Below the pieces are notes generated by a model. That model saw only the letters and a program-made list of their open reading frames with translations, did no database searches and had not been told where the DNA came from. A stretch of 64,000 bases of DNA from an uncultured delta proteobacterium. GTDB lineage: Bacteria; Desulfobacterota; Binatia; JACPRU01. Below are positions 11,269 to 63,211 of this stretch, piece after piece. The translations under genes were made by a program, and so were the position numbers. Within the stretch, counting starts at the first letter, position 1, and every line of letters begins with the position of its first letter. The DNA lies in NCBI GenBank assembly GCA_963745025.1, contig CAVUWD010000017.1, positions 1-64,000 on the forward strand, given 5' to 3'.

Positions 11269-11323
11269 CCGTAGAAACGGGGCGCCTCGTGTTTGGGCAG
11301 CGTCGGGTATTGAGGCCTTACGT
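11269..11323 (+). repeat. Dispersed ~83-bp junction repeat, copy 1 (partial, 55 bp, diverged)
   Basis: CCGTAGAAACGGGGCGCCTCGTGTTTGGGCAGCGTCGGGTATTGAGGCCTTACGT. Confidence 0.9.
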
Positions 11324-11354
11324 GGAGACATCCGGACGGATCGGGGATCACTGC

Positions 11355-11475
11355 CAGCTCGATCTCTGTCGACGGCAAGGTCGTGCGCAGCGGGCACTCC
11401 GGCGACTTGATGGGCCACTGCTACAATTCGCTCGCCTGGGTCGGCAACAAGCTCGGCGAACACGGCAAGCGCGTC
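11355..11475 (+). pseudogene. Fragment of 2-keto-4-pentenoate hydratase/FAH-family gene
   Basis: SVDGKVVRSGHSGDLMGHCYNSLAWVGNKLGEHG. Confidence 0.55.
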
Positions 11476-11572
11476 AGCGAGCACTCCCACGCGGTAGAGT
11501 AGCGAGCGGGCAAGGTCCCGTGCGGTCGCTCGATGTTGCGGACGTACACGGCTGTGCTCCACGATAGCGGCG

Positions 11573-11820
11573 GTGTCCCAGAAGGAACTCCGCCAACTCG
11601 TCGCCCGCCTCGAGGCCGACGCGGCCCTCACGCCCCTGGCGCTACAAAGCCCGCGTTGTCGCTCTGGCTCTCCTTGGCTACGCTTACCTGCTCCTGATCC
11701 TCGTCCTGTCGGTCGGCCTGCCGGTAGTGTTTGTTCTCGGCCTCTTCACGAGCGCGACGGCCGTGTTCATTCAGCTCGTCCTGAAGCTCGGCTATCCCGC
11801 TTTTCGCCCTGGCAGCCGTG
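11573..11820 (+). pseudogene. Frameshifted N-terminal fragment of a membrane protein (M48 peptidase-like)
   Basis: LVARLEADA..P / RYKARVVALALLGYAYLLLIL. Confidence 0.5.
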
Positions 11821-11899
11821 CTCGCCAGTGGAACGGTCGGTCACGCGCCACGGAGAGGCGCAGAGCGACTTGAGTTCTTTTTGCCGCGAAGCCGCAGGA

Positions 11900-13138
11900 T
11901 CAGCGCGCGAGTTCAGGGAGGTTGCCGATCGTGAAGAGTCTCTCGGGGACGCGATCCGCCACGACGATACGGTGCATCTCGCTGAACGCGGCCCGTCCGC
12001 TTTCGTGATTGATCGCATCGAATGCGAGCCATAGAGGCGCCCGCACCTGCTCGTTCCCGGGATTGAACGCCGGGTTCCCGTAGAGCGTGAAGATCGTCTT
12101 GTAGTGTTTTCCCTGATGATCGTACGCGAGGACGTACAGCGGCACGTCCATCTGCTCGTCGATGTAGAGCACCCGCTTCGCGTACGGGTGATTGGGGTTC
12201 TTCGGCGTGCTCTCGAGCAGGAGCAAGTTCCGCAACTCCCAGGGATCCGTCGGGTATCCGGTGTGCGGATCGAAGCTCGCCTTGACGCCCTGCACCCCGA
12301 CCGGGGCGAGCATCTTCGCGCGGCCGAGGAACCGCCAGTTGTGCTCATGCAGGTAGCCTGCAAAGCAATAGTAGTCCTCGAACAGGAGCTCGCTCGACAA
12401 CGCCCGCTCCTCCAAGGTCACGTGCGTCTGACGGACCTTGTGCATCTCTCGGATGTACGCAAAATCGAGATCGCTCGTGCGATCGTCATCGTACCGGAAC
12501 TTGAGGCTTATCACGTTCTTCACGTCCTCCGGCTCGAGGGCCTGGAAAAGCTCCTTGTAGAGGATGCCCTCCCCCTGCCAGATGTTGTCTTTCGGATCGT
12601 TGCGGTGCATGCCGAACGCTTGGGCATAGGTGAACTCGACTGTGCGTATGATCTCCCCGCCCTCGACGAATCGTTGCGCCCCCCACCCTTGGCCGAAGTT
12701 GAAGGAGTCGTGGTACCGGTAGTTCCACGCCAACTTGAGGCCCGCCTGAGGGTCTGCGGCATCGATTTCCGGAAACGGACGGCCATTCACGTAGCCCTCG
12801 AGGCTTCCGTCCTCGCGCAGCCGTGCCTTTCCGGCGTTGCGGCGTGTCGCCTCGACGTAGGCCGGGGTCAGCGGCAAGTCCGTCGTCGCTCGCGTTCGGA
12901 TCTTGAGCTCGCCGCTCTTGACCTTTTCGACCAGCTCGGCGGGAAGCACGTTGACGGCGTCCTGCCAATTTTCCTTCGATAGAACCGGCGCCAAGTCGGT
13001 TCGTGTGGAGTGCTCCTCTAGAGGCAGAGGGCGTGCAGGTTGCGCGTCGGCCGAGGTGTCCGCGCCGGACGCCGGGCCGCCCATGCCCGCCGCGAGCGTT
13101 GCTACTGCGACCGAAGTGAGAAAGATTCGCATCGTCAA
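11900..13138 (-). CDS. DUF1329 domain secreted protein
   Basis: Signal peptide; YVEATRRN and GRPFPEIDAADPQAGLKLAWN; HPYAKRVLYID. Confidence 0.8.
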   Translation of the reverse strand: MTMRIFLTSVAVATLAAGMGGPASGADTSADAQPARPLPLEEHSTRTDLAPVLSKENWQDAVNVLPAELVEKVKSGELKIRTRATTDLPLTPAYVEATRRNAGKARLREDGSLEGYVNGRPFPEIDAADPQAGLKLAWNYRYHDSFNFGQGWGAQRFVEGGEIIRTVEFTYAQAFGMHRNDPKDNIWQGEGILYKELFQALEPEDVKNVISLKFRYDDDRTSDLDFAYIREMHKVRQTHVTLEERALSSELLFEDYYCFAGYLHEHNWRFLGRAKMLAPVGVQGVKASFDPHTGYPTDPWELRNLLLLESTPKNPNHPYAKRVLYIDEQMDVPLYVLAYDHQGKHYKTIFTLYGNPAFNPGNEQVRAPLWLAFDAINHESGRAAFSEMHRIVVADRVPERLFTIGNLPELAR

Positions 13139-13372
13139 GCTCCCATCTTCGCTGCCAGGTGAACGGGCAGCATCTTAGGTGCCACGCGAGCAGCCCATAG
13201 CGCCGCGAACTGATGGCCGTGTGGCAGATCTTTCGCGTGGCGCGAGAAGGTGTGTCTGGTCCGATCGGAGCCCCTCCTGGGATCGTAACGAGGTCCCTTG
13301 CGGGGAGCGGTCTTAGAAAAGAATCGCGCTCGTCGATCCTAAGCGGTCCGGAGCAATGGAACGGAGCCGGCT

Positions 13373-14020
13373 TCATCGAGTCCTCTTCGTTTTTCGCGCG
13401 GCCGCGGGCCGGGGCGGCTGCGCATGCTCCACGATCTGGCGGAAGCTCGCGAGCATGCGCGTGGAGCGGCGATCTTCGTCCGGATAGAGGATTCGTGCGA
13501 GAGCGAGACCGTCGAGCACGGCAAAGACGAAGTCCGGCTTCCGCAGTACGGGGTTCCAGGCGGCCTCTGGGAGATATTTCCGGAGAGCTTCGCCCACCGA
13601 ATTGACGAATGGCTCGCTTTGCCGGACCACGGCGGCTCGGAGCTCGGGATCGGTGCGCGAGGCGACCACGAACTCGAGCCACGCCGCGAAGCTAGGCCCC
13701 TCGAACATCCTCCAGAGCAGGTCGATCGCCACGCCCGGCCTGCCGGCCCGAGGCAGCCGCTCCGCGAAGAGCTGCTGAACCTCCTGATAGCGGCGCCGCA
13801 GAAGGCGCTCGACCGCGGCGACGACGAGGGCGGCCTTGGTCGGGTAGTGATAGACTTGTGCTCCGCGGGAGACGCCCGCCCGCTCCGCGATCTCGGTGGT
13901 GCTCGTCCGAGCATAGCCGACGGCGATGAGCGACTCGATCGTCGCCTCGAGGAGTCGCGTGCGTGTCTCCTCGCTTCGTTCGTCCTGGAGGCTTCGGCGG
14001 CGCTCGGCGGTCCGAATCAT
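13373..14020 (-). CDS. TetR/AcrR family transcriptional regulator
   Basis: TRTRLLEATIESL...STTEIAERAGVSRGAQVYHYPTK. Confidence 0.92.
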   Translation of the reverse strand: MIRTAERRRSLQDERSEETRTRLLEATIESLIAVGYARTSTTEIAERAGVSRGAQVYHYPTKAALVVAAVERLLRRRYQEVQQLFAERLPRAGRPGVAIDLLWRMFEGPSFAAWLEFVVASRTDPELRAAVVRQSEPFVNSVGEALRKYLPEAAWNPVLRKPDFVFAVLDGLALARILYPDEDRRSTRMLASFRQIVEHAQPPRPAAARKTKRTR

Positions 14021-14114
14021 GCCTTGGAGGAGCTACCTCATCTCAGCGTTCACGTGCAAGTCTGTTTTTATTCGGCAGACCCGAACTGTTTAGACAGCTT
14101 TGAACGCAACTGGC

Positions 14115-14196
14115 CCGTAGAAACGGGGCGTCTCGTGTTTGGGCAGCGTCGGATATTGAGGCTTAACGTCAGTCGCCGCTTATCCCAGCTATCCTC
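14115..14196 (+). repeat. Dispersed ~83-bp junction repeat, copy 2 (82 bp)
   Basis: Direct match to the other copies with 1 substitution and 1 deletion. Confidence 0.95.
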
Positions 14197-14434
14197 TCCG
14201 GAAGGGTACCCGATACATGACGCGGTCGCGGTGGCCGAGCTCGTGCGCCCGGGGCTCCTGACAACGGAGTACGTGAACGTCGTGGTGGAGTGCTCGTCGG
14301 AGCTTTCGCGCGGGCGCACGGTCGTCGACCGTAGCGGCCGCAGCGGCCGCGAGCCCAACGCCCGTGTCGCCGTCGACGTCGACACGGCCGCCTTCGTGCG
14401 CCTCCTGATTGAGCGCCTCCGCACGCTCGGGTGA
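14197..14434 (+). pseudogene. C-terminal fragment of nucleoside hydrolase
   Basis: PIHDAVAVAELVRPGL...VECSSELSRGRTVVD...NARVAVDVDTAAF; begins right after the repeat. Confidence 0.85.
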
Positions 14435-16606: not shown

Positions 16607-16663
16607 CCACACCTGAGATGAGTGAGCACCTGGTCGTGACTGAATCAGGAGTTTAGATCGGGA

Positions 16664-17292
16664 TCAGTAGCGCAACGACGTCACCACGCCGACCCCGGGC
16701 GCCGTTTGCAGTCGCTCGGCGAGCTCGTTGCCCTTGCTCAGCTCCTTCAGCTCCTGGTCGAACTCCTCGATGGAACAATCCAGCGCCTCGAGCACCTCGA
16801 GCAGCGGCTTCACATGCTGCACCAGTGCCTCCCGCATTGTCAGGCGTGATTTCGTCCGGCGGGTCTCCACCGCCGGAACACGAGCTCTCGCTCAGCACTC
16901 GAGCGTCGCGCTGGTCGCTCTTGAGCCGTCGTTGCCCAACTTCCAACGACGGCGCCAGCATCGAGGGCACCACGCGCATTTCGTGCCCACTCACCCGCGC
17001 GATCTCCGCCACCCAGAACGCTTCGGCCCCCGTCTCCACGATCACCCGGCTCTTGGCCCGCCCTTCCAAGTAGCGCCGTAGCGTCTGCGGTCGCGTCGCA
17101 ATCCGTCGCTCCTCGACGATCTCCCCGCCCTCGCTCCGCACGCACACCTGCGATTCCTTTGCTCCCAGATCGATGGCAATGTGTTCCATGGCTGGCTGCC
17201 TCCTCCTTCTGCGGCTTTGACCGCGTTTTGACATTGAGGCACGGTATCGCCGTGACCTCGTCAGTGAGGTAGCCAGCCACTTCATCTAATCT
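16664..17292 (-). mobile_element. IS110-family remnant: internally deleted/frameshifted transposase (16664-17189) plus structured 5' leader
   Basis: IAIDLG...VIVETG...KSDQRDARVL (RuvC-like DEDD) and RLQTAPGVG; long inverted repeat in the leader. Confidence 0.8.
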
Positions 17293-27656: not shown

Positions 27657-27707
27657 CATCAGCGAGCCCGAGAGCAGGTACAACAGCACCAGCGGATGCA
27701 GCGTCCA
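27657..27707. repeat. 51-bp exact copy of 31145-31195 (pssA-like 3' region)
   Basis: CATCAGCGAGCCCGAGAGCAGGTACAACAGCACCAGCGGATGCAGCGTCCA at both sites. Confidence 0.9.
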
Positions 27708-28679: not shown

Positions 28680-29460
28680 TCACTGGCCGCTTGCTTGCGC
28701 GCGGCGCGAGCGGAGCTTCGATCCGAGTTCCCGCTTCACCGCGAAGTGCACGTGGTAACGTTGCATTGCGACGGCCGTGAGCGCTTCGTCCGAATACGCG
28801 CGCTCGACGTCCTGCGGCGACCACGTCTTGCTGTTCCTCAGAGCCTGGACGCCGATCACGGCTTCGACCAGCGCCTGCTCGAACCACTGTCGCACCGCCT
28901 CGCGTGCGAGGTCCGCTACGCCGGGTACACCGCCGAATTCCTTGGTGAAATACGCTGTCATGTCGATGAACGCGCGGAAGTCGGCGTTGATGAAAAGCAG
29001 GTTCTGCTCCGCGAGGTACTTCGCCGCGCGGTCTTCGATGTCGCCGGGCGCGCGTGAGCCGTCGGTCACCGTGACCCAACTCACCTGCGGGAACGGATCG
29101 GGCTTCACCCGTCGTCCGGGGACGCCGTCCTTATTCTCGAAGACCGCGTAGACGTTTCCCGCCGTCCCAGCGCCGGACGCCGAACGCCCGACGCCGCCCG
29201 CTCTCGTCTGTCGCGCCGCTCCCGGTTGTCCACCGCGCGCGAGGGTCTCGGGGTCGATCATCACATCGCCATCAGGCGTCACGCGGTAGCGGCTCAGTTT
29301 GAACAGATCGAGGATTTCCTTCAGCCGCTCGCGGATCGCCTTCTCGTGATCGGTGTTTGCAGCGGCCGCGGCTTTCGAATTGACGAACTCCACCAGCTCG
29401 TCGGGCAGGTTTTCGCGAAACTCGGCAGCCCAGTCCGCCCATGGGAGCGGCTGCCGACCG
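28680..29460 (-). pseudogene. C-terminal part of a large hypothetical protein
   Basis: Protein-like composition from QPLPWADWAAEF; 5' end replaced by a DZR fragment. Confidence 0.65.
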
Positions 29461-29461
29461 A

Positions 29462-29712
29462 TCATCGCCCTCGAGGGCGGCGCGGGAGGTGAGGATCTTC
29501 TCGGCGAGGTGGTGAGGGGTGTGGGAGCGCGGGTCACGTGTCGCCGAAGTCTTCGGCAAGCCGGCGAGGTTCTTGCCGCACTCGCCGCAGAACCGCTCTC
29601 CCGGTTCCGAGCTGGCGCCGCACGATGGGCAGGCAAGCTCGAAACTGGCGCCGCAATGGGCGCAGAACCTTCGGCCGGCTCGATTCTCCCGGCCACACTT
29701 TGAGCAACGCAT
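29462..29712 (-). pseudogene. DZR N-terminal fragment of a cyclase-ATPase paralogue
   Basis: MRCSKCG...FCGECG...HTPHHLAEKILTSRAALEG. Confidence 0.85.
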
Positions 29713-30860: not shown

Positions 30861-31054
30861 TGCTATGCCGTGCCGCCGCCTTGCAACCAGTCATCACGCC
30901 TGGGGGATAGGCCACAAGCGACCGAGTTGACGTTAGGCTACGATATCAGACTGCCGGCTCTACAGCCCGCTTTGACGGACGCTGACCCGCGGCGAATTTT
31001 GTGGGCGTTGATGTCTCAGAAACGTCTGACTCTGGTGCACGACTGAGCGGGGTC

Positions 31055-31112
31055 TCTCGAGCGTCGCTTCGTCGGCGGCGCGGCAACGCAATGACAATTC
31101 CAGGAAGGGCAT
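31055..31112 (-). pseudogene. 5' fragment of a probable L11 methyltransferase (PrmA-like)
   Basis: MPFLELSLRCR start coupled by TAATG to the upstream gene. Confidence 0.4.
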
Positions 31113-32385: not shown

Positions 32386-32389
32386 TTCG

Positions 32390-36923: not shown

Positions 36924-37006
36924 CCGTAGAAACGGGGCGTCTCGTGTTTGGGCAGCGTCGGATATTGAGGCTTTACGTCAGTCGGCCGCTTATCCCAGCT
37001 ATCCTC
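36924..37006 (+). repeat. Dispersed ~83-bp junction repeat, copy 3
   Basis: Consensus copy. Confidence 0.95.
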
Positions 37007-37075
37007 CTGCGCCCGCTGCCGGCCGTGAAGGTGAAGGGCCGGATCGCCGAGGTGGAGGTCTACGCCCTCGTCTGA
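37007..37075 (+). pseudogene. Extreme C-terminus of a class III cyclase gene (also at 47574-47642)
   Basis: LPAVKVKGRIAEVEVYALV*. Confidence 0.65.
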
Positions 37076-37349
37076 GTCGCAACGACGGCCCATTCGAGTC
37101 GCGAAACTTCACGTTAGTGTTTGAAGGTGCAGCTCGGCGCCGGGCACCGGCCTAGGCGTGCGCTACGAACCCTGCTCCGGGTAGTCTGGCAAACGCTCCC
37201 GAAGGCGCGGTAGGACTACCCGGGCCAGACAAACACCCCGTTCAGCGACGTGAGGTAAATCCCCGGGTAGCTCTGCGGACCTTCGCTTGTTGAAATTTAT
37301 ATGATCATGTAATGCCGCTGTTGTCGTCGTGGCGTGATCGAGCATCTCA

Positions 37350-43101: not shown

Positions 43102-43153
43102 GTCTCAGAGCCGAGTGCTCTCCACTCGGCACTCAACCTCAATAGGAGCCCCT

Positions 43154-44614: not shown

Positions 44615-44904
44615 AGATCGACGACGAGGCGGGGCGAATCGTCCGGGCCACAGTCTGCGGCGCCGACCTCGAGGAGATCCCGGACACCGAGCTCCAGCCG
44701 CTGCCGCCGCAGCGCCTGCCAGAAAAGCCGAATTCATTGCCGCCCGCGCCGCCGCGCACGGCCGTTCCGCAGACACTCGTGCTGCGTAGCTTCCTGCCGC
44801 CGAAGGAGACGCCGGCGCTTACGGGACCGCAGGAGGCGCTCCAGCCACCGCGGAGAGTCCTACCGCAGGGCCTCCTCCTGTCGAAGAAGGGAGGCGGTTC
44901 ATGA
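44425..44904 (+). CDS. Hypothetical protein
   Basis: AGGAGG RBS before MSYRIDD; ATGA overlap with the recombinase. Confidence 0.65.
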   Translation: MSYRIDDPTGRVVAEWRGSSEPPRFAVGDLVVEIVSNEIYQVADRYWDEVDLVDTWIYVCRKMKIDDEAGRIVRATVCGADLEEIPDTELQPLPPQRLPEKPNSLPPAPPRTAVPQTLVLRSFLPPKETPALTGPQEALQPPRRVLPQGLLLSKKGGGS

Positions 44905-45476
44905 TCGTGAACTGGAACCTCCCGAAGTACCTCCGCCAAGACCAGGTCCGAGCGTTCCTCTCGGTCATCAGGAACCCTCGAGATAAAGCGCTCTTCACGA
45001 CGATCTACCTCTACGGGCTCAGAGTCTCCGAGGCTTGCCTGCTTCAGCGGGAGGACCTCGACTTCGAACGCCGTACGATCCGCGTCTGGCGTGTGAAGAG
45101 CGGCTACTCTGGAGAGAAGCCGCTCTTTCGGCGCCTCGTGGCGATTCTCCGGCGATACCTCCGTACCCGGACCGATGACAATGCGGCGCTCTTCGTCGGT
45201 CGCCAAGGGCGCCTGAGCAAGCGCTGGATCCAGGCCCTCTTCACCCGCTATGCCACCGCCGCCAACCTCCCGCCGAATCGGAGGCACGTGCATTGTCTCA
45301 GGCACAGCTGCGCGACCCACCTTCTCGACGCCGGCGAGCCGATCGACTTCGTCCAGGACCACCTCGGTCATCGAAACATCGAGTCGAGCCTCGTCTACGC
45401 CCGCGTCTCGGATAGGCGGCGAAGCAAGGCGATCACCAGGCTGGAGCGGTCGCGGGAGATCGCTCTGCCCGCGTGA
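44901..45476 (+). CDS. Tyrosine recombinase, catalytic domain only (191 aa)
   Basis: GLRVSE (R), VKS (K), HCLRH (HxxR), LGH and VYAR (Y). Confidence 0.92.
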   Translation: MIVNWNLPKYLRQDQVRAFLSVIRNPRDKALFTTIYLYGLRVSEACLLQREDLDFERRTIRVWRVKSGYSGEKPLFRRLVAILRRYLRTRTDDNAALFVGRQGRLSKRWIQALFTRYATAANLPPNRRHVHCLRHSCATHLLDAGEPIDFVQDHLGHRNIESSLVYARVSDRRRSKAITRLERSREIALPA

Positions 45477-47490: not shown

Positions 47491-47573
47491 CCGTAGAAAC
47501 GGGGCGTCTCGTGTTTGGGCAGCGTCGGATATTGAGGCTTTACGTCAGTCGGCCGCTTATCCCAGCTGTCCTC
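47491..47573 (+). repeat. Dispersed ~83-bp junction repeat, copy 4
   Basis: One substitution (CTGTCCTC). Confidence 0.95.
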
Positions 47574-47723
47574 CTGCGCCGGCTGCCGGCCGTGAAGGTG
47601 AAGGGCCGGATCGCCGAGGTGGAGGTCTACGCCCTCGTCTGAGTCGCAACGACGGCCCATTCGAGTCGCGAAACTTCACGTTAGTGTTGAACTCTGCAGG
47701 TCGGCGCCGTGCAGCGGCCTAAG

Positions 47724-48466
47724 CATCCTGATCGCTCTGGGAGTGGCCCCCGACGGAGCCAAGCACGTGCTCGGGCTGCGAGAGGGCAGCACCGAGAATG
47801 CCACGGTGGCCAAGGCGATGCTGTCGGAGCTGATGGACCGCGGGCTGGGCGCCGAGCGCCCGATCCTGTTCGTCATCGACGGTGGCAAGGGGCTGCGCAA
47901 GGCCATCGGCGAGCTCTTCGGTGCCGCCGCCGTCGTGCAGCGCCGCCAGGTGCACAAGCGGCGAAACGTAATCGGGCATCTTCCCGAGTCGATGCAGCCC
48001 AGCGTGCGGCGCGCGATGCAGCAAGCCTACGACACTCCCGATGCCGATCTGGCCCGGCGCCAGCTCGAGCGCCTGGCCCGCTCGCTGGAGCGCGAACATC
48101 CGGGAGCAGCAGGATCGTTGCGCGAAGGACTCGAGGAGACTCTCACCCTTCAGCGCCTCGGCATCACCGATTCGCTGTACCGCACGCTTCGCAGCACCAA
48201 TGCCATCGAGAATCTCAACGGCTCGGTCATGCACTTCGCGCGCAACGTGCGTCGCTGGAGAGACGCCTCGATGATGCTGCGCTGGATCGGAACGGGTCTT
48301 CACGAGGCGCAGAAGCAGTTTCGCCGACTGAAGGGCTTCCGTGACATGAAGCGGCTCGTCGCCGCCCTCGATCGAGTCAATAACCCAGGAGTGGAACAGA
48401 GGAAGCAAGTCGCATAAAACCGCGACCCAGGAACCGCCACCGTTCAACAGCGAATGGGACATCCCC
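47724..48466 (+). mobile_element. IS256-family 3' half: transposase fragment to 48417 plus right end
   Basis: HVLGLREGSTEN, FVIDGGKGL, QVHK.RN and STNAIENLN motifs; terminal TTCAACAGCGAATGGGACATCCCC. Confidence 0.85.
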
Positions 48467-50129: not shown

Positions 50130-50402
50130 CGGCCGCTGGCATGGAGGATTGGGCAGTACTGTTGGAAACGCCACTTCCGCCGGATTGCGCGAGTTCACAC
50201 CGCGCGCACGAGCCGCGTACGGGTCCAGCTTTCCACCTGAAGCGCTGGCGGAGCGAGCTTCACGTTAGTGTCTAAGGGTGAACCTCGTTGGCTTGCCAGC
50301 CGGCTGGTGACCTTACTACTGATCGGCCACCCTTGAAGCGCAGCGCGCCAAGGGTCTATTCGAGAGCATCAGCTCTCGGCCTCGGCCGTCGAGCCAAGAA
50401 TT

Positions 50403-50475
50403 ATGCGTTGCCCGGCCTGCAGTTTCGAAAACGCGAGCGGAAAAGTTCTGCGGTGAGTGCGGCGCACCCCTGAAC
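50403..50475 (+). pseudogene. Degenerate DZR start fragment
   Basis: MRCPACSFENASG / KFCGECGAPL. Confidence 0.6.
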
Positions 50476-50584
50476 AGAAGCGGAGGGATGGTTCGACGGG
50501 CCATGCGGGACGGGCTGGAAGAAGACTAGCGATTCCTGGATGTGCGCGACCTCGGGAGATTCGCGACGCAAAGGAGAACACGCA

Positions 50585-53057: not shown

Positions 53058-53482
53058 ATGCGTTGCTCAAAGTGCGGCCGGGACAATCGAACCGGCCGAA
53101 AATACTGCGCTCACTGCGCCGCCAAGCTGGCGATCTTATGCGCCTCATGCGGAGCAGAGAATGAGCCGGGGGAGCTTTTCTGCGGAGAATGCGCAAAGCC
53201 GCTCCCTGAACCTGCGGAAGGTAGGGCACTACCGGAGCCGCGCAGCTACACCCCCAAGCACCTCGCAGAGAAGATCCTGACCTCGCGCGCCGCCCTCGAG
53301 GGCGAGCGCAAGCAGGTGACGGTGCTGTTCGCCGACGTGAAGGGCTCGATGGAGCTCGGCGAGAAGGTCGATCCAGAAGAGTGGTATCGGATCATGGACC
53401 GCTTCTTCCTAATCCTCTCCGACGGGGTGCACCGTTTCGAGGGGACGGTCGACAAGTTCACCGGCGATGGAATCATGGCGCT
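53058..53482 (+). pseudogene. DZR-cyclase N-terminal fragment, fused in frame to an IS91-like tail
   Basis: FADVKGS...TVDKFTGDGIMAL, then a junction. Confidence 0.85.
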
Positions 53483-53849
53483 GCTACGGCGGACCTTCGA
53501 GATCGACGTTCTTGCCTGCCCCGAGTGCGGCGGGCGGTTGCGTCTACTCGCCACCATCGAGGATCCGGCGGTGATCAGGAAGATCCTCTCTCACCTCGGT
53601 ATCGCGGCCGAACGTCCGCGCCCTGCGCCCGCGCGGCCGCCGGAGGCGACGGGATTCTTCGACTTCGGGAGTGATTGAGATACGGCCGAGCGGCACGGAG
53701 CTCAGGCGAGGGGCAGGATATTCTTTGACTCTGGCTCGCAGGCAGCGTCCGCACCCGGGGGGCCGCCCGTGAGCCGGGCGGCCCGACGCGGGCGGGGGAC
53801 GGCCGCCCGCCCGGCGCCGAGATTTTGCTGGACAGGTGCCTTGTGCGCC
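53483..53849 (+). mobile_element. IS91/ISCR-like transposase C-terminus and downstream hairpin-rich end
   Basis: LRRTFEIDVLACPECGGRLRLLATIEDPAVIRKILSHLG; hairpin GGGCCGCCCG/CGGGCGGCCC at 53760-53784. Confidence 0.75.
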
Positions 53850-53932
53850 CCGTAGAAACGGGGCGTCTCGTGTTTGGGCAGCGTCGGATATTGAGGCTTT
53901 ACGTCAGTCGGCCGCTTATCCCAGCTGTCCTC
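53850..53932 (+). repeat. Dispersed ~83-bp junction repeat, copy 5
   Basis: Same variant as copy 4. Confidence 0.95.
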
Positions 53933-54173
53933 ATATTACACCGGGATCGACCCGCTCACGAACAAGCCGGTCTACACCGCAACCGATTTGCGCGAGAAGA
54001 AGATGATGAAGGCCCTTCTCTACTATTGGGACAAGGACAACTGGCCGCTCGCTCGCGAAGCGCTGAAGAAAGCAGGGCGACGCGATCTCATTGGACGGTC
54101 ACCCAGCTGTCTGGTTCCACCGGATTGCAGCAGAGCGCCCTCGATGGCGCGGCAAGGACGGCAAGCACGATGA
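53933..54173 (+). pseudogene. C-terminal fragment of YgiQ-family radical SAM gene
   Basis: YYTGIDP...KALLYYWDKDNWPLAREALKKAGRRDLIG. Confidence 0.8.
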
Positions 54174-55144: not shown

Positions 55145-55146
55145 CC

Positions 55147-55330: not shown

Positions 55331-55412
55331 CCGTAGAAACGGGGCGTCTCGTGTTTGGGCAGCGTCGGATATTGAGGCTTTACGTCAGTCGCCGCTTATC
55401 CCAGCTATCCTC
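55331..55412 (+). repeat. Dispersed ~83-bp junction repeat, copy 6 (82 bp)
   Basis: Shares the 1-bp deletion of copy 2. Confidence 0.95.
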
Positions 55413-55624
55413 TCGAAATAAAACTCCTGCATCGCACTCTCCTTCCGACGGCATGGAAGCGCCGTCGCGCAGAAGAGTGCCCGGCTGGATGGATTATGCG
55501 AAGTCGAGCCCGGCTCGCAAGCGATGCCACGCCTCCGAAACCCTTCGATGTCTCCCGCCGTGATGCTGAGGTACTCCGCATATTCCCGCACTCCGCATAT
55601 GCGCGGCTATGCTGTGCACAGCAT

Positions 55625-55765
55625 AGGCGGGGCTTCTGTCCATCGTGCTGCGGCCGCAGGATGGCCGAGCTCGCCGCTCACCTGGCTGATCGCGTCCTCG
55701 GCGGCCTCCCCGTGCGGCAGTGGGTCCTCACCCTCCCGCACCGGCTTCGCTATGCGCTCGCCCTC
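55625..55765 (+). mobile_element. IS91-family transposase zinc-binding fragment
   Basis: RRGFCPSC.GRRMAE.AAHL.DRV...PVRQWVLTLP..LRY. Confidence 0.75.
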
Positions 55766-55889
55766 AGCTCATCGTCGAAGTCCTGTAGTCGGTGGCGACC
55801 CGGGCTTTGCAAAATTCAGTCTTTCGCCCGCTCGATGCCCGCTGATATCATCGCGGCGAAAACGGATCATCACCGACGAGAGGTGGTCG

Positions 55890-57710
55890 ATGAAACCACG
55901 GACGATCGGTCTCGCAATATCCGTGTCGCTGCTCTGCATGACCGCGGCTGCGACGGCGCAGCCCGTGCTCACGGATCCCAACCTGACGGTGGAAACGGTC
56001 GTGACCGGCCTGTCCACGCCGACGACGATGGCGTTCGTCGGCCCGAACGACATCCTCGTATTGCAGAAGAACGACGGCCAGGTGCGCCGCGTGCTGAACG
56101 GCGTCGTGCAATCGACGGTCGCCCTCGACGTGGCGGTCTCGAACGACAGCGAGCGCGGCCTCCTCGGCATCGCCGTCAACTCGGAAAATCCGCCGAAGGT
56201 GTTCCTGTATTACACGGAGTCGACGGTCGACGGCGGCACGCCGCTCGGCAACCGGCTCTACCGCTATGACTGGAACTCGGCGACGGGGCTGCTCACCAAC
56301 CCGTTGCTGATCCGCGATTTCCCGGTGACGCCCGGCCCGAATCACGACGCGGGGATGGTGCTGCTCGGACCGCCGGAGAGCGGTCTTCCCGGCGACGGCC
56401 GACCGCTCTACGTGATCGTCGGCGAGCTCAACCGCAACGGCCAGCTGCAGAACAATTCGACCGGAGCGGCACCCGACGACACGGGCGTCATCCTGCGGCT
56501 GCGACAAGACGGGACGGCTCATCCGTTGAACCCCCTTTTCCCGTACTGCAGCACCTCCACCACGACGACGTGCACGAACGACGCGGGCTGTCCGAGCGGG
56601 CAGACCTGCATCACCAAGGTCGCGAGCTACTTCGCGTACGGCGTGCGCAACTCCTTCGGCCTGACGATCGATCCCGTGACCGCCAAGCTGTGGGACACGG
56701 AGAACGGCCCGAGCTCGTACGACGAGGTCAATCTGGTCGAAGCGGGATTCAACAGCGGCTGGAACAAGATCCAGGGTCCGCTGTCGCGCAATTCGAACGG
56801 TCTGAGCACGCTCTTCGACATGCCCGGGAGCGCTGACAGCTATTCGGATCCCGAGTACTCGTGGCTCACGCCCGTCGCGCCGGCGGCGATCATTTTCCCG
56901 GCGGGCAGCACCATGGGAGCCGCCTACGACAACGTCGCGCTCGTCGGCGACTACAACGTCGGCCAAATCTACAGCTTGCCGCTGAACGCCACGCGCACGG
57001 GCTTCATTTTGACCGGCGGATTGGCGGATCTCGTCGCGGACAACAGCACGGAGCGCGATCAGGTGAAGCTCGGCTCCGGCTTCGGCGGCGCGACCGACAT
57101 GGACATCGGGCCCGACGGCGCGCTGTACGTGCTGTCGATCGGCAACGGTGCGATCTACCGCATCCGTGCGGCCGCCGGCACACCGACACCAACGAATACC
57201 GCGACCCGTACGCCGACGAACACCCCGACGCGTACATCGACCCCGACCAACACGCCGACCAACACGCCCACGAATACGCCGACGAGCGGACCGACGAGCA
57301 CCCCGGCCAACACGCCGACGAACACCCCGACCCGTACACCGACGAATACGCCGACCAACACGCCGACGCCGTCGACCGTGCACGTCGGCGACCTCGATCG
57401 CAGCGCGGTGCTCCAGGGATCGCGCTGGCGCGCCACGGTGACGATCACCGTTCACGACGCGACCAACGCCCCGGTTTCTGGCGCCGCGGTGAGCGGCACG
57501 TGGAGCGGCGGGGTATCCGCGTCCGGCTCGTGCGCGACCGGCCCGGCCGGCGGCTGCGGCGTGACGAGCCCGGCGATCCACAAAAAGAACCCGTCCGTGA
57601 CGTGGACCGTCGGCGGTGTGTCGGCGGCCGGGAAGGTATACCAGCCGAGCGCGAACCACGACCCGGATGGCGACAGCAACGGCACCACGATCACCGTTCC
57701 CAGGCCCTGA
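55890..57710 (+). CDS. Secreted glucose/sorbosone dehydrogenase (PQQ-type propeller) with Pro/Thr linker and C-terminal beta domain
   Basis: Signal peptide; [26 protein letters not shown] and IGPDGALYV motifs. Confidence 0.88.
57178..57375 (+). repeat. Coding (TPTN)n 12-bp degenerate tandem repeat
   Basis: ACGCCGACCAAC-type units. Confidence 0.85.
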
Positions 57711-57745
57711 GCGTTAACGCCGCCTGGCGGAGCGAGAATCGCCCG

Positions 57746-58275: not shown

Positions 58276-58546
58276 CGCTCCTCCGACATCGAAATGCTAC
58301 CCGGAGGTCACAGCCGGGGCTGGACCCACGCCGGCAGGAAGCCGACCCGCTCTAGATGGAACGCAGGAAAGATCGGCGTTCCCGGCATCGCTGGATTGCA
58401 GAGGTTTGCATGCTCCCGCACGAGAATTGGGAGCACAATGGGAACACCCGCCGAGGGGGAAGTGGGCTCTACCGAGAGGCACGAGGGCGAACAGGGCGAG
58501 CACGGCGGCAGGTGGAAGCGCCTCACTGTTCGCACGCGCCGACTTC

Positions 58547-59074: not shown

Positions 59075-59402
59075 GATGGGTCAAGGCGCTTGTGCTCGGC
59101 GGAGCCGCGACCCGTTACGTATCGGCCCGCTCTGGCCACGAATCACCGAGCTGGGGGCGGTCGCCGTGCGTCCACGCGCTTGATGCACGCGGCCACGGCC
59201 GCCACGACTTGCTTATCCAGTGGTTCACTCGCGAGCAGCGGGCGATTTTGCAGAGAAGTCTGCGGACAACTCGTCTTCGGCCAGGGGCGACGATAGCAGG
59301 CTTCCGCAAAGCTCCGTTCGAGAAAGGGGGCAAAAACGGGGCAAGCGACGACCGCCCCAGGCCGCAGACGATCGAGCTAGCGGCGCGACGTTACGGGTGT
59401 CG

Positions 59403-59594
59403 CTACTTCCGGCGGGGAAGGTCCAGCACCTGCTCTTTTACTTTGTCCACGAGCTTCACGGCGATTTCGACGGATTGCGCAATCGCGTCCGGCCCTGTGC
59501 CACCGATTCCGAGGCGGCCGGCACTCGCTGCGAGCAATCGAGACGCGACTCCGAGCACCGCCTGGAACCTAGGATTCGTTTCATCGACAGCCAT
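59403..59594 (-). CDS. Small hypothetical protein
   Basis: GGGAGG RBS before MAVDETNP. Confidence 0.5.
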   Translation of the reverse strand: MAVDETNPRFQAVLGVASRLLAASAGRLGIGGTGPDAIAQSVEIAVKLVDKVKEQVLDLPRRK

Positions 59595-59811
59595 AAGTGG
59601 AACCTCCCGGTCACAAACGCTACGCGAGTCAGTTTCATCCGCGCAACCAGCACTCGCGACCACCAAACGTGGCGCTCGATGGCGTCGTGCTTTGCCCCTA
59701 GGAGCACAGGACTGCTAGTGCTGAGGATGCTCGCGAGCGCTTGCGCCGCATGCTTTGCGGAGCCCTGCCCCGTTTCTGCCCCCGTTGCGACATGGAGGCG
59801 TTAGCCGGAGG

Positions 59812-60015
59812 TCACAGCCAGGGCCGGACCCATGCTGGCAGGAAGCCGACCTGCTCTGGATGGAACGCTGCCCACCGCTTCAGGATGTCGTGCTCCGCTT
59901 CCTCGCTGGCGATCACCCACGACTCGCGTCGGTCCCGCCCGCTGGGTCGGACGCTGATCCGGGTGAGCCCGTCCGGGCCGGCCTTCATCGTCCAGAACTC
60001 GAAGTCGTCGGTCAC
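59812..60015 (-). CDS. Small hypothetical protein (paralogous 3' end at 58301-58364)
   Basis: ...AFHPEQVGFLPAWVRPWL*. Confidence 0.5.
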   Translation of the reverse strand: MTDDFEFWTMKAGPDGLTRISVRPSGRDRRESWVIASEEAEHDILKRWAAFHPEQVGFLPAWVRPWL

Positions 60016-60367
60016 CGCAGTTCTTTACCATCGCGGGCCGCCAGCCGCCCAGCAGCGGGGCCGCGAGGCGCTCCCGTCGGTGGGGAGTAACTCAGACGTG
60101 ACCGGGATCGCGATGGCGGGGATAGGCTCGGCCACGCTCGCGCGGTGTTGTTCGGCGCCATGTACGGCGAAAGTAAGCGCGTGCTTCGATTCGCTTCCCG
60201 AGGTCACGGTGGCAGCCGGCGCCGGCAGTCGCCCGCGCTGGGCTCGGCTGCACTCGACGACATTCCGAGCGGCGGACGCAGCTTAGCGACAACCGCCGGC
60301 CCCGCCTGGCGATACGCTGGCGGCAATGGTGGTTGTCTAAGTAGTAGACCACACGAATGGAGCCGCG

Positions 60368-61088: not shown

Positions 61089-61171
61089 CCGTAGAAACGG
61101 GGCGTCTCGTGTTTGGGCAGCGTCGGATATTGAGGCTTTACGTCAGTCGGCCGCTCATCCCACCTATCCTC
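61089..61171 (+). repeat. Dispersed ~83-bp junction repeat, copy 7
   Basis: Two substitutions (CTCATCCCACCTATCCTC). Confidence 0.95.
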
Positions 61172-61205
61172 CGGTCAAGGTCGCGCAGAGGCCAAGCCCA
61201 AGGTA

Positions 61206-61553
61206 CTAGCGAGGCGTGGTGTTTCCCATTCGATCGACGTGCGCCGCCCATTCCTCGAGCGACTGGAAGGTGCCGACGATGTTGTCGCCTTCGAAGTAGT
61301 GATACCAATCGTGGCTCTCCGATCCTTCCGCCACGGCTTCGACACTGGCCGCATCAGGACATTCGAAAAATGCCATACCATCCCAATCGCCGAAGCCTCG
61401 ACATCGGTAAATCCCAATGAGCTTTACGCCGCGTGCGGACAGCGTCGCGACATTTTCACGAATGCCATCAAGAAACGCCGCCTTCTGCTCCTTGGTGAGG
61501 TCGTACCAATTGTCGCGCGGCTTCCAGAACTCGACCAATCCATACTTTGCCAT
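61206..61553 (-). CDS. Small ferredoxin-like-fold hypothetical protein (DUF6616-like)
   Basis: VEFWKPRDNWYDL...DWYHYFE; GGAGG RBS. Confidence 0.65.
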   Translation of the reverse strand: MAKYGLVEFWKPRDNWYDLTKEQKAAFLDGIRENVATLSARGVKLIGIYRCRGFGDWDGMAFFECPDAASVEAVAEGSESHDWYHYFEGDNIVGTFQSLEEWAAHVDRMGNTTPR

Positions 61554-61977
61554 GCTGATCACCTCCGACCGAATTGCTCGCTACACCTCGTGCCCGGTCG
61601 TTAACAAATGCCAATCACGGAAAGCAAATTGTCACCCATAGGCCACTCCCGCTCGGTGGTGGAGAGTTTCTTCAGGCGGTCGATCGCTAACATGTATTCA
61701 AAAAGGTGAATCGGTACGAGGCTCTTCCACTTTTCAGATAGTGCGTCAAGGATACCGACGGGCTGTTCTGGTGTGAGTTTGAGGGTGCTCGCTCCGTCGT
61801 CCAGCGACCCCAATAGTGAGGTTGTTCGGAAGAGAGAATCGAAGGCTGACCGTCACACGCAGGTGAGCTCGAGCGGCACGTCGTGCAAGGACACTGCATC
61901 GTCCTTCGTGACTTCCTTGCATGTTCACGACCCGTCCTGTTCTAAGGTGACGTAGCACGCGAAAATAGGAGATTTCG

Positions 61978-62991
61978 ATGAGCAACGAACTTCCGCCACC
62001 AGCGCGAATGCTTCAACTCATCACGGGCTTATGGGTAAGCCAAGCCGTCGGAACCGCCGCTCGACTGGGCGTCGCCGATCAGCTTGCGGAGCGCCCGAAG
62101 AACAGCAGTGAAGTCGCTGAGGCCGTAGGTGCCGATCCACACGCCCTCTTCCGCCTGATGCGCATGCTAGCGAGCATCGGTGTCTTCACGATGGACGAGC
62201 AGGGGCGCTTTGGGCTCACGCCGTTGGGCGAAACATTACGCTCTGGCGTCCCCGGTTCGGTCAAGAACTTCGCCGTTGCTGAAACAACGCCGGGGCATTG
62301 GCTGCCTTGGGGAGAGATGTACGAGGGAATCAAGACCGGCAAGCCGAGGTGCAAACCAGCCCTCGGCATGGAGCTCTGGGATTGGTACTCGAAGAATCCC
62401 GAAGAAGGCGAGTATTTCAATCGGGCGATGGGCGACCTCTCGGCGGCCGTCTCAGACGACGTAGTACGCATCTATGACTTCGCCAAGTTTCAGAAGGTGA
62501 TGGATGTCGGTGGAGCGCACGGCATCCTTCTCGCCGCGATACTGAGGGCAAACCCCAAGATGCGAGGCATTCTGTTCGATTTGCCACGCGTCACTGCGAC
62601 CGCAAGGGAGTCGCTCGAGACTCAGGGAATCGCCCAACGATGCGAGGTGGTCACCGGCGACTTCCTTGAGGGCGTTCCATCTGGCGCTGATATCCATGTG
62701 CTCAAGCAGGTCATCCACGACTGGAGCGACAAGGAGTGCACGACAATCCTCCGGAACTGCCATAAGGCATTGAAGCCGGGAGGCAAGCTTCTCTTGGTTG
62801 AAATGGTCATCCCACCAGATAACTCGCCGAGCATGGCGCAGGCGATGGATCTGAACATGCTCGTCTTGCTGACCGGCAGAGAACGCACCGAATCGGAGTA
62901 TCGAGCCCTGCTGGCAGCGGGAGGCTTCAAGATTGAGCGGGTCATTCCTACCCACACGGGGTTCAGCGTCATCGAGGCGTCACGGGTTTAG
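61978..62991 (+). CDS. O-methyltransferase with dimerisation domain
   Basis: MDVGGAHG, LFDLP, GDFL, KQVIHDWSD and GRERT motifs. Confidence 0.93.
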   Translation: MSNELPPPARMLQLITGLWVSQAVGTAARLGVADQLAERPKNSSEVAEAVGADPHALFRLMRMLASIGVFTMDEQGRFGLTPLGETLRSGVPGSVKNFAVAETTPGHWLPWGEMYEGIKTGKPRCKPALGMELWDWYSKNPEEGEYFNRAMGDLSAAVSDDVVRIYDFAKFQKVMDVGGAHGILLAAILRANPKMRGILFDLPRVTATARESLETQGIAQRCEVVTGDFLEGVPSGADIHVLKQVIHDWSDKECTTILRNCHKALKPGGKLLLVEMVIPPDNSPSMAQAMDLNMLVLLTGRERTESEYRALLAAGGFKIERVIPTHTGFSVIEASRV

Positions 62992-63128
62992 AGCCTATCC
63001 CGGTAGGCCAATGGCCCTCCACGCAATTACGGCACATGCGAGGTGCAGCATCGCGAGGTAGTTCTTAGGCTTCTTCTCCCAGCGAATGTTGATGCGACGA
63101 AAGCGATTCATCCAACTATGCGAGCGTT
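62991..63128 (-). mobile_element. IS5-family 3' end (transposase C-terminus plus IR), cut by repeat copy 8
   Basis: ERSHSWMNRFRRINIRWEKK..NYLAMLHLACA; end GGGATAGGCTC-TA; similar end at 18408-18418. Confidence 0.75.
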
Positions 63129-63211
63129 CCGTAGAAACGGGGCGTCTCGTGTTTGGGCAGCGTCGGATATTGAGGCTTTACGTCAGTCGGCCGCTTATCC
63201 CAGCTATCCTC
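63129..63211 (+). repeat. Dispersed ~83-bp junction repeat, copy 8
   Basis: Consensus copy. Confidence 0.95.

Follow-up and report, generated by a model that had tools for sequence, protein, structure and literature searches.

Co-oriented short repeats at gene-fragment junctions as right-hand ends of an IS91/ISCR-family element in an uncultured delta proteobacterium

A repeat of 82-83 nt recurs along the 64,000-nt stretch of DNA analysed here (the window) at junctions between unrelated gene fragments, which raises the question of what kind of sequence it is and how it came to lie there. The preliminary description left the choice between an undescribed recombination or capture site and an artefact, and saw an "IS91 end" beside one copy. 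The first answer was close in spirit, but the family concerned, IS91/ISCR, is a known one; the second is not supported; and the IS91 end was noted while its link to the repeat was missed. Probably, a lineage-specific element of the IS91/ISCR family has the 83-mer as its right-hand (oriIS-type) terminus, and the copies stem from one-ended transposition and premature termination together with rearrangement.

Seven full copies and one truncated copy lie in the window, sharply bounded, on the + strand throughout and 1.5-23 kb apart. A search allowing up to three mismatches returned five of them (at 36924, 47491, 53850, 61089 and 63129; none expected in 100 shuffles), and a repeat-family search added those at 14115 and 55331, both of 82 nt, and the partial one at 11269-11323. 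The latter, c1 (11269..11323), comprises repeat positions 1-55 only. Solo copies are c2 (14115..14196), c3 (36924..37006), c4 (47491..47573), c6 (55331..55412), c7 (61089..61171) and c8 (63129..63211), while c5 (53850..53932) is a "long" copy in its native context, 3' of a transposase tail. All eight positions given in the preliminary description are correct, and its statements on the common orientation, on the identical first and last base of the seven full copies and on shared variants (a 1-nt deletion in c2 and c6, A>G near the 3' end in c4 and c5) are borne out. It lacked a further 151 nt common to the right sides of c3 and c4, the long conserved left extension of c5, and the remnants of this extension just before c3 (~10 nt, TTATGACAA) and c8 (12-13 nt, TATGCGAGCGTT).

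The context of c5 provides insight into the identity of the repeat. A 171-nt spacer (53679..53849, + strand) separates c5 from the end of an IS91/ISCR-type transposase gene (53484..53678, + strand), of which the last ~57 codons plus the stop remain, joined to a truncated cyclase gene. The 63-aa piece corresponds to positions 450-507 of 509 of the NCBIfam model ISCR_clade_Ia (E 2.2e-9), and a six-frame match to the transposase covers 53484-53645. In G000, the genome holding the window, four copies (c5, C16:838217, C6:522586 and C11:263170) lie 171 nt 3' of a transposase tail, and tail, spacer and repeat are likewise arranged in G001 (L038), which together with G006 represents the sister genomes compared. 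The c5-type spacer is conserved at the other three G000 loci and in an element of ~2.05 kb in G006 (G006:C3), which begins with a left end bearing a GC-rich, terIS-like palindrome and continues with a transposase gene, a spacer of ~170 nt and 83 terminal nucleotides. Its transposase domains (Zn_Tnp_IS91, 66.4 bits against a cut-off of 26.3; Y2_Tnp, 44.3 and 22.5 bits against 20.9) are scattered across three frames by frameshifts and are followed by tail, spacer and a diverged 83-like end. The element matches the window at 77% over 470 nt, with the homology ending at the same right edge. Elsewhere in the window, a piece of such a transposase stands alone (55616..55762, + strand; profile positions 96-144) and is 84.6% identical to the G006:C3 element. 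Both ends were kept in G006:C14, an 831-nt derivative with an internal deletion. The tail-spacer-repeat linkage in G000 and the 83-like end of the full G006 element place the repeat at the oriIS terminus. The G006 element is a member of a diverged subfamily, whose end has diverged along with its transposase tail; at least three subfamilies co-diverge in this manner. The ending ...GGCTATCCGC is seen in a more distant ISCR-like element (L076/L078) as well, ~290 nt past its stop.

The preliminary description had suggested a genome-wide count and a search of other metagenomes. The count gives 36 clustered matches in G000, most of them solo ends, and the search gives nine independent contigs from other assemblies; the two sister genomes also carry the repeat, with solo copies in G006 at 94% identity to the canonical 83-mer. 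All genomes in which the repeat was found also hold ISCR-type fragments. Against 36 right-end matches, no left-end sequence was found in G000, nor an intact transposase or a full-length element of the canonical type (the genome being 92.65% complete). Copies differ from each other by substitutions and 1-2-nt indels. When 53 matches are pooled, position 1 is the first base in 41 of them and position 83 the last base in 41, and for at least 20 G000 copies the left boundary falls on the same internal nucleotide, beyond which the DNA is unrelated. Seven copies are 100% identical while their flanks are unrelated, which we count in favour of a recent spread of the 83-nt unit itself. Some copies also agree in their right flanks, over stretches that vary in length (151 nt, ~319 nt and at least 484 nt). 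The right end is followed by C in 21 and by CG in 11 of 37 distinct flanks, a weak indication of a target tetranucleotide.

The earlier claim that the flanks never rejoin into one gene holds at every place tested. The edges of c2, c4 and c5 coincide with the start or end of gene fragments, and homology to G001 begins or stops at those of c2, c6 and c7, starting at the right edges of c6 (55411) and c7 (61171). The left edge of c2 is the end of a DUF1329-TetR module (11861..14114, - strand), which has identical ends in G000, G001 and G006, while the neighbouring DNA on either side is unrelated among the three. At the right edge of c2 starts the orphan 3' part of a nucleoside hydrolase gene (14198..14434, + strand; profile positions 230-296 of 297), the sole match to its family in G000. 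A DUF429 match stops at 47490, one base before c4. The 151-nt patch common to c3 and c4 contains a cyclase-domain tail and then a stop on the c3 side (37007..37157, + strand), and on the c4 side (47574..47724, + strand) it precedes a 5'-truncated Mutator-family transposase gene (47743-48417); positions 47573-47762 are bridged by one X2 contig. Left of c5, the transposon remnant cuts off a zinc-ribbon/cyclase paralog after its N-terminal 143 residues (53058..53486, + strand; tblastn residues 1-143 at 65% identity, zinc-ribbon Pfam matches), and 2 nt past c5 starts a 3' fragment of a DUF3362 domain (53934..54170, + strand; profile positions 18-92 of 151), which we take to be a YgiQ-type C-terminal domain. 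Metagenome contigs L086 and L092 contain the orthologous c1 locus, where the shared left flank (97.7% identical in L086) leads into a full-length copy. In L086, which is from a close relative, the right side differs from that of c1, which we interpret as an indication of recent rearrangement at this copy.

The islands are rich in other broken mobile genes, namely Mutator, IS110-like and tyrosine recombinase fragments. An ORF with a tyrosine recombinase catalytic domain lies at 44901-45476 (74.3 bits with integron integrase models, sub-threshold against a cut-off of 265), and another tyrosine recombinase adjoins the diverged copy at C11:263170.

Terminal matches within the repeat are at chance level, in agreement with the earlier report of missing terminal inverted repeats. 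Target duplications are likewise absent from 21 of 22 full genomic copies, the remaining one showing a 3-nt match within the range of a shuffled-pair control. Both absences are usual for the IS91 family. The 5' mini-hairpin noted before is present, and five additional bases on the left extend it to a 9-bp stem straddling the left edge of the repeat; at c5, the last 5 nt of the spacer form the left arm of this hairpin. The repeat region contains two short palindromes. The 83-mer by itself has no folding advantage over shuffled sequences (z +0.41 for the + strand and -0.95 for the - strand), whereas with its left extension the + strand has one (z -2.43; 3 of 200 shuffles fold equally well), and Rfam yielded no match at gathering thresholds. 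An empty site was found for no copy among 11 G001/G006 loci and six metagenome contigs, nor for c2, c6 and c7, so that simple insertion of the 83-nt unit is not demonstrated. With neither inverted repeats, target duplications nor an empty site found, the earlier judgement "not a simple MITE insertion" was right. The edge-exact gene fragments and the lack of empty sites fit capture or rearrangement at transposase cleavage sites.

One-ended transposition and capture of adjacent DNA are known from the IS91/ISCR family (PMC13181058, PMC3189936, PMC6218425, PMC12772301), and solo ends with one fixed internal start resemble the miniatures attributed to one-ended transposition of IS801. According to that account (Bardaji et al. 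2011, PMC3189936), right-end fragments of 229, 360 and 679 nt have a common right (ori) terminus, start at an internal ter-like tetranucleotide, lack inverted repeats and target duplications, arise with transposase supplied in trans, and make up 26% of IS801 transposition events, and IS801 mobilises adjacent DNA as well; genomic IS801 fragments are located at points of reorganisation. The unit described here differs in its length of 83 nt, its 36 matches in a genome lacking an intact parent, its co-oriented clusters, and its mobility, which is putative. Furthermore, the left end of the element starts with GTAG/GTGG and solo copies with CCGTAG; given this 2-nt offset, the copies follow only approximately the IS801-style rule, by which the left-end tetranucleotide is also the start of a miniature. 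In published accounts of IS91, the final 82 bp, with two imperfect subterminal palindromes, suffice as oriIS (PMC13181058), which lies ~167 bp 3' of the coding sequence (PMC5737581). The position 3' of tnpA, the length, the two palindromes, the distinct ends and the absence of target duplications are paralleled here, a likeness of size, position and layout; the flanking tetranucleotide CTTG, essential in IS91 (PMC13181058), finds no clear equivalent here beyond a preference for C or CG. ISCR elements, as far as the consulted sections describe them (PMC6218425, PMC12772301), have a sharp outer oriIS boundary abutting variable, often truncated DNA, a variable captured region past oriIS, "sandwich" capture between two sequential oriIS, and remnants that provide extra co-oriented oriIS copies; these sections contain no report of remnants as fixed 83-nt units. 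The transposase tail matches the last ~57 positions of the clade Ia model, but the best transposase score in the relatives (355 bits) is far under its curated cut-off of 925, resistance genes and a class 1 integron context are both absent, and the host belongs to an uncultured environmental lineage. Helitron ends are defined by 5'-TC and 3'-CTRR. Helitrons likewise combine rolling-circle HUH transposition without inverted repeats or target duplications, a near-end hairpin in termination, and capture and stringing of gene fragments (PMC4778049), but with a Rep-helicase transposase architecture and in eukaryotic hosts, so the likeness is one of behaviour only.

The place of the repeat at the end of the element, its sharp edges, the junctions with gene fragments and the imbalance between right and left ends are seen directly. 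From these patterns we infer how solo copies and arrays originated, that both edges are cleaved, that the 83-nt unit is mobile, and by which route each junction arose. The element would move by rolling-circle replication with an HUH Y2 transposase, which would nick the 83-mer at its outer edge and strip one strand inward. Termination would often come too early, at an internal ter-like site within the GC-rich hairpin 83 nt from that edge, releasing an 83-nt miniature element with fixed ends, and failure of termination would carry adjacent DNA along. Repeated local insertions may then have built the arrays, in which gene fragments start and stop exactly at repeat edges, with further contributions from events between two co-oriented ori ends and from recombination, deletion or breakage at copies. 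Since strand displacement in the textbook IS91 model runs inward from oriIS, common right flanks are not predicted without additional steps.

Alternatively, the repeat may be an IS91-type terminus whose solo copies never moved as 83-nt units but are scars of full insertions, trimmed by recombination, deletion or break repair in the host, so that the arrays form a passive transposon graveyard. This is unlikely but deserves consideration, as IS801 fragments in P. syringae mostly result from reorganisations rather than one-ended transpositions, according to that study (PMC3189936), and the broken mobile genes of the islands, the missing empty sites and the exchanged right side in L086 point the same way. 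However, the exact start shared by at least 20 copies is unlike random deletion and requires a site-specific cut, and the seven identical copies with unrelated flanks likewise oppose this reading.

An origin of the 83-mer as a small repeat in its own right (REP/MITE-like or a small RNA gene), lying beside IS91-type remnants or serving as their preferred target, is improbable. Most copies indeed have no transposase sequence nearby, and the extended + strand folds well, but the 83-like end and the transposase tail have diverged together, the terminal motif keeps its place in the more distant element, and the repeat was found only in genomes with ISCR-type fragments; the 1-2-nt indels, the lack of terminal repeats and target duplications and the negative Rfam search argue in the same direction.

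We regard as very improbable that the repeat is an integron-like attC or another tyrosine-recombinase site with cassettes in between, as co-oriented arrays and the two nearby recombinases might suggest, because it is no full-length imperfect palindrome, its bottom strand folds poorly, the recombinase is far under integron integrase cut-offs, the intervals of 1.5-23 kb bear genes in both orientations, with truncated ones at junctions, and the gene with which the repeat is contiguous encodes an HUH transposase. An artefact of assembly is barely conceivable despite two contigs starting with the repeat (C3:1-82, C4:14-97) and a MAG-like genome with 7.6% contamination, as the repeat is a natural transposon end, the c1 left-flank junction recurs in L086 and L092, and a linker or chimera (including concatenated contigs) is contradicted by copy variants, by mid-contig placement (34 of 36 matches internal, contigs without N) and by recurrence in other assemblies, with the same two-copy locus in three of the nine metagenome contigs.

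The terminus of an IS91/ISCR-type element is a real and largely familiar kind of mobile-DNA remnant, neither an artefact nor a new kind of system. In G000, the transposase genes have decayed to fragments and left ends are gone, while the right end persists in its 36 matches.

The eight copies of the 82-83-nt repeat listed for the window in the preliminary description (here c1 to c8, by position) are all confirmed by a pattern search and a repeat finder. The pattern search, allowing up to three mismatches, recovers the copies at 36924 (c3), 47491 (c4), 53850 (c5), 61089 (c7) and 63129 (c8), where none are expected in 100 shuffles. From the repeat finder come those at 14115 (c2) and 55331 (c6), which are 82 nt each and have one 1-nt deletion in common, and a truncated copy at 11269-11323 (c1). 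As had been claimed, all eight lie on the + strand, both end points are common to the seven full copies, and c2/c6 and c4/c5 form variant pairs. The reported lack of target duplications likewise holds for 21 of the 22 full genomic copies, the remaining one showing a 3-nt match that lies within the shuffled-pair control, and matching between the two ends of the 83-mer is no better than chance, in agreement with the proposed absence of terminal inverted repeats. Lacking both terminal inverted repeats and a target-site duplication, the repeat does not qualify as a MITE; it does not fit an IS200/IS605-derived PATE either, as no bases are conserved at positions -8 to -1 in 37 distinct left flanks.

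Two short palindromes are visible in the 83-mer, which alone folds no better than shuffled sequences. The window contains no match to Rfam 15 at gathering thresholds and no tRNA in a tRNA scan. Translated, the 83-mer has no convincing similarity to the cyclase domain, and indels of 1-2 nt among the copies argue against its being coding sequence.

The repeat is the terminus, at the oriIS position, of an element of the IS91 family. Four "long" copies are distinguished by a map of shared flanks, namely c5 and those at C6:522586, C16:838217 and C11:263170 (C-numbers are contigs of the genome under study, G000, unless another genome is named); their left flanks are homologous over 250-675 nt, up to the repeat itself. 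In the translated left flank of c5 a zinc-ribbon/cyclase ORF breaks after residue 143 and is followed by a transposase C-terminal peptide, which matches positions 450-507 of 509 of the NCBIfam model "ISCR element clade Ia family transposase" (E 2.2e-9). The stop codon of this transposase lies 171 nt before the start of the repeat, and the repeat ends at 254 nt. Six transposase fragments of this type occur in G000, all of them C-terminal tails and pieces and none intact, and Y2_Tnp has a single partial match there.

A nearly complete element is carried by contig C3 of the sister genome G006, with its transposase domains (Pfam) distributed over three reading frames: Zn_Tnp_IS91 scores 66.4 bits (cut-off 26.3) and Y2_Tnp 44.3 and 22.5 bits (cut-off 20.9). 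The transposase domains are followed by the same tail, a spacer of about 170 nt and a diverged version of the 83-nt sequence, and homology to the window (77%) stops at the same right edge. The left end is set by an 831-nt internal-deletion derivative on G006:C14 that keeps both ends; it reads GT[A/G]GCACTCGC... and gives a full length of about 2.05 kb. The G006:C3 element has a perfect palindrome, GCCCGGATCCGGGC, about 18 nt in from its left end; this palindrome is GC-rich and of the terIS type. This left end (GTRGCACTCGC plus palindrome), whose conservation is judged from the two copies on G006:C3 and G006:C14, is unrelated to the right end. A search of G000 detected no left end, against 36 matches to the right end. 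In the G006 element the 83-like end and the transposase tail have diverged together, the solo copies of G006 (those without a transposase tail) are 94% identical to the canonical repeat, and a more distant ISCR-like element in the sister genome G001 likewise ends in ...GGCTATCCGC, about 290 nt after its stop codon. Together, these three observations show that the 83-mer belongs to the element as its terminus and did not arrive as an insertion of its own. Under this model, an intact element of the canonical type should end at ...GCTATCCTC.

The family assignment agrees with what is described for IS91 relatives. The two ends of IS91-family elements are functionally distinct, with oriIS downstream of tnpA and terIS upstream, and have neither inverted repeats nor target duplications; two imperfect subterminal palindromes lie in the oriIS of both IS91 and IS801, and for transposition of IS91 its final 82 bp are enough, according to the text of PMC13181058. 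In a sphingomonad, the IS91 oriIS was located some 167 bp downstream of the coding sequence (PMC5737581). The repeat resembles the family in its position, its size, the lack of terminal inverted repeats and target-site duplications, and the dominance of right ends. Further features of IS91/ISCR elements are the zinc-binding IS91-type and Y2 HUH domains physically linked to the 83-like end on G006:C3, and two unlike ends devoid of terminal inverted repeats, with no target-site duplication. The transposase is related to ISCR clade Ia but is not a member, its best scores against the clade model (NF052416, cut-off 925 bits) being 355 bits in the relatives and 78.5 bits, from a fragment, in G000.

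The outer edge of the repeat is a precise boundary, and most copies have a precise inner boundary as well. For several of these edges the start or end of a gene fragment lies only 0-2 nt away. The right edge of c2 is the starting point of a nucleoside hydrolase fragment (profile positions 229/230-296 of 297); this fragment is the only such sequence in G000, and the missing 5' part of the gene is found nowhere in that genome. A DUF429 match stops at 47490, one base before c4, and a DUF3362 fragment (profile positions 18-92 of 151) starts 2 nt after c5. Of two cyclase paralogs, one resumes at residue 70 directly after the copy at C16:1103534 and the other breaks off at about residue 210 ahead of the copy at C11:246957. 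Other copies are intergenic and adjoin intact genes for an aldo/keto reductase, GSDH, DUF6616 and an O-methyltransferase. These cyclase paralogs belong to a very large, genome-wide family of double-zinc-ribbon / class III cyclase / AAA_16 / TPR proteins, of which one 1120-aa member gives 119 tblastn HSPs on 17 of the 20 contigs; dozens of matches occur in the sister genomes too. Within the window, zinc-ribbon/cyclase paralogs lie at 1174-6537, 28680-29696(-), 50369-50500, 53058-53486 and 63443-64000, and near repeats many paralogs are truncated or fused to other fragments.

In the comparison with G001 and G006, homology breaks at the very edge of three copies, on the left for c2 and on the right for c6 and c7, and beyond these points the sister genomes continue into unrelated DNA. 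The DUF1329-TetR block to the left of c2 (11861-14114, 2.25 kb) has the same two ends in G000, G001 and G006; it is 86-90% identical among the three, and its neighbours on both sides differ in each. Judged from this comparison, the block behaves as a discrete transferable module, whatever the mechanism. To the left of the copies in G000, at least 20 have unrelated DNA, six a 9-14-nt remnant of the spacer and four the full spacer and tail. Right flanks are mosaic at some copies. A 151-nt patch, the tail of a cyclase domain, whose translation resembles that domain weakly (E about 9), follows c3 and c4, and the same sequence is longer elsewhere (about 319 nt at C11:244487, at least 484 nt at C4:4557). 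Another patch of about 120-140 nt precedes a common downstream cyclase-upstream region at C16:825895 and C6:519396. A contig assembled from sequencing run X1 joins the first ~100 nt of the c4 patch (47673) to 50258, skipping 2584 nt with 14 nt shared, and the repeat finder likewise links 37107, 47674 and 50258, so that a related population has the patch in a different arrangement. Empty sites were not encountered: in G000 the flanks of 11 copy loci from G001 and G006, and those of six of the nine metagenome contigs with the repeat, are never contiguous. Nor were exchange partners recovered, since the G001 and G006 sequence beyond the breakpoints does not lie beside other G000 copies; one of eight such matches falls within 3 kb, over only 68 nt.

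Right ends of fixed solo size, the lack of left ends and shared flanks of variable length lend indirect support to rolling-circle or one-ended transposition. Termination at terIS is described as often failing, so that adjacent DNA is mobilised (one-ended transposition), and the functional intermediate as a bottom-strand single-stranded circle (PMC13181058). A variable region is reported beyond the oriIS of ISCR1 (PMC6218425), and in the "sandwich" model for ISCR28 a second oriIS from a remnant ISCR captures the gene in between (cited via PMC12772301). In its native host, IS801 gives rise to transposed right-end miniatures of three sizes (229, 360 and 679 nt), all with the right terminus in common and each beginning at an internal tetranucleotide similar to the left end; they make up 26% of its transposition events, adjacent DNA is mobilised too, and genomic IS801 fragments mostly looked like products of reorganisation (PMC3189936). 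In the partial collection of papers searched, IS91-family miniatures of the right end that are as small as ~83 nt were not described.

The inner boundary of the repeat falls within the left arm of a 9-bp GC-rich hairpin. By analogy with the IS801 miniatures, the transposase may terminate too early at this boundary and would thereby release an 83-nt unit, which could be propagated in trans. The arrays and fragment junctions would then result from a mix of local re-insertion, read-through capture and ori-to-ori events, to which homologous recombination or deletion between co-oriented copies and nick repair at two cleavage sites may contribute. Simple inward strand displacement would not predict the shared right flanks of variable length. 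Of 37 distinct flanks, 21 have C directly outside the right end and 11 have CG, with no clear tetranucleotide; copy orientation agrees with GC skew at about 8 of 11 loci, where the skews are tiny and the agreement is not significant. The weak C/CG preference and the weak GC-skew tendency are compatible with the model and are no proof of it.

Solo copies of purely passive origin are hard to reconcile with an inner boundary that is identical across copies and with seven 100%-identical copies in unrelated contexts. On a more far-reaching reading, the 83-nt unit might be a minimal rolling-circle module that is still active, combines ori with an internal ter in its 83 nt, moves by itself when a transposase is supplied in trans and stitches short pieces of host genes into co-oriented arrays via read-through and ori-to-ori events. 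We consider this unlikely; if true, it would be a bacterial counterpart of the gene-fragment capture by Helitrons, and one that remodels the very large zinc-ribbon/cyclase/AAA/TPR gene family here.

Other identities for the repeat fare less well than an IS91-family terminus. The co-divergence of the 83-like end with the transposase tail speaks against an independent small repeat or RNA. An integron-like site is disfavoured, with fold, spacing, gene content and sub-threshold recombinase scores all contrary: as an attC site or cassette array the repeat shows a partial bottom-strand fold (z -0.95) and no spanning imperfect palindrome, and the nearest tyrosine recombinase scores 74.3 bits against an integron integrase model cut-off of 265. 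An assembly artefact, the second option of the preliminary description, is disfavoured by copies that vary, recur in other assemblies and mostly lie mid-contig.

The distribution of the repeat bears on the last point. The G000 assembly is MAG-like (5.65 Mb in 20 contigs, 92.65% complete, 7.6% contamination), and its contigs contain no N. Contig C17 begins with the window, which makes up its first 64 kb. The 36 matches are clustered and co-oriented within each cluster: eight on C17 and six on C4 (all +), four on C6 and three on C11 (all -), and seven around 826-853 kb of C16, five on the - strand and two partial or diverged on +; C3, C8, C15, C16 and C19 carry singletons or pairs. Copies at contig boundaries, which would have pointed to concatenated fragments, are limited to two of the 36, both at contig starts (C3:1-82 and C4:14-97). 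Substitutions and small indels distinguish the copies. When the G000 matches are pooled with those collected from the two sister genomes and metagenome contigs, 41 of 53 start at repeat position 1 and 41 of 53 end at position 83. A variant at C16:843857 and in G001 (L039) opens like the canonical repeat for ~20 nt (CCGTAGA...GGGGCGTCT), continues with a different, longer 5' half and ends in the conserved 3' half; it may be a hybrid or a further subfamily.

Among 40 relatives searched, the repeat occurs in two, G001 of the same genus (7 matches) and G006 of the same family (3 matches), and it was detected in none of 33 more complete genomes of the class. A species-level genome collection yields five loci, from two records titled "MAG: uncultured delta proteobacterium". 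The proposed search of other metagenomes gave 13 matches on nine contigs, mostly mid-contig and with identical edges; a two-copy locus with 1120-nt spacing is common to three of the nine. The left flank of c1 recurs on the collected contigs L086 (97.7% identical to the window) and L092, followed in both by a full-length copy. Nine sequencing runs matched, each with a small share (at most 0.12 of the sampled words). Reads of four of them, assembled against the window, gave mostly unitigs of 150-290 nt, and none of the listed pieces from these four runs crosses an edge of the 83-mer with at least 31 letters on both sides; one contig of run X2 spans 47573-47762, a junction that marks where the 151-nt patch ends and is not a repeat edge.

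Several further features of the window are recorded here. The segment 30902-31821 is 99.3% identical over 922 nt to G001 (L064, 839-1760), against about 86-94% for other shared modules, which suggests from this identity that it was recently exchanged or is mobile; its ORF at 30960-31790(-) has no significant Pfam match, and a 51-nt exact repeat occurs at 27657-27707 and 31145-31195 (repeat finder). Region 43115-45476 holds a DnaN-like (sliding clamp) ORF, with 150 bits to TIGR00663 (cut-off 137.65), followed by a 191-aa tyrosine recombinase ORF that consists of the catalytic domain only and is closest to XerA/XerC-type models. A DDE_Tnp_1 (IS4/IS5-type) transposase ORF of 589 aa, free of internal stops, adjoins a gene with a Schlafen AlbA_2 domain (39282-41051 and 41193-42554(-)); also present are an IS110-like fragment (16653-17285(-)) and a Mutator-family transposase truncated at its 5' end (47743-48417). 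A repeat with a 12-nt period (57174-57395, about 13 units or more) lies inside ORF 55524-57710, whose product has a glucose/sorbosone dehydrogenase (GSDH) domain; this repeat probably encodes a Pro/Thr-rich linker and has length variants among metagenome contigs. An 81-nt direct repeat (58284-58364 and 59788-59868, 85% identity, copies 1504 nt apart) lies in a region with no ORF matching Pfam, and the segments 59399-59651 and 59855-60153 are 86-92% identical to two different G001 contigs.

IS91/ISCR elements have been studied mostly in clinical gamma-proteobacteria, as vehicles of gene capture. The element described here is a lineage-specific IS91/ISCR type whose minimal ori terminus outlived the remainder and marks rearrangement breakpoints in islands of mobile DNA; it is notable only in that its solo form has a fixed and unusually short length of 83 nt and that left ends are lacking altogether. 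A puzzling repeat pattern now falls in a known mechanism class, and a fixed-size, co-oriented repeat at gene-fragment junctions, with neither terminal inverted repeats nor target-site duplications, provides a signature for decayed IS91/ISCR-type elements in uncultured bacteria. For annotation, the 64-kb window is to be flagged as a mobile-DNA graveyard, in which many short ORFs beside repeats are gene fragments. If the 83-nt unit is mobile, it would be the smallest IS91-family derivative among those found in the literature searched, and a compact substrate for cleavage studies of HUH Y2 transposases. The 36 right-end matches against no left ends in an environmental genome represent a natural record of how frequently termination failed or came prematurely.
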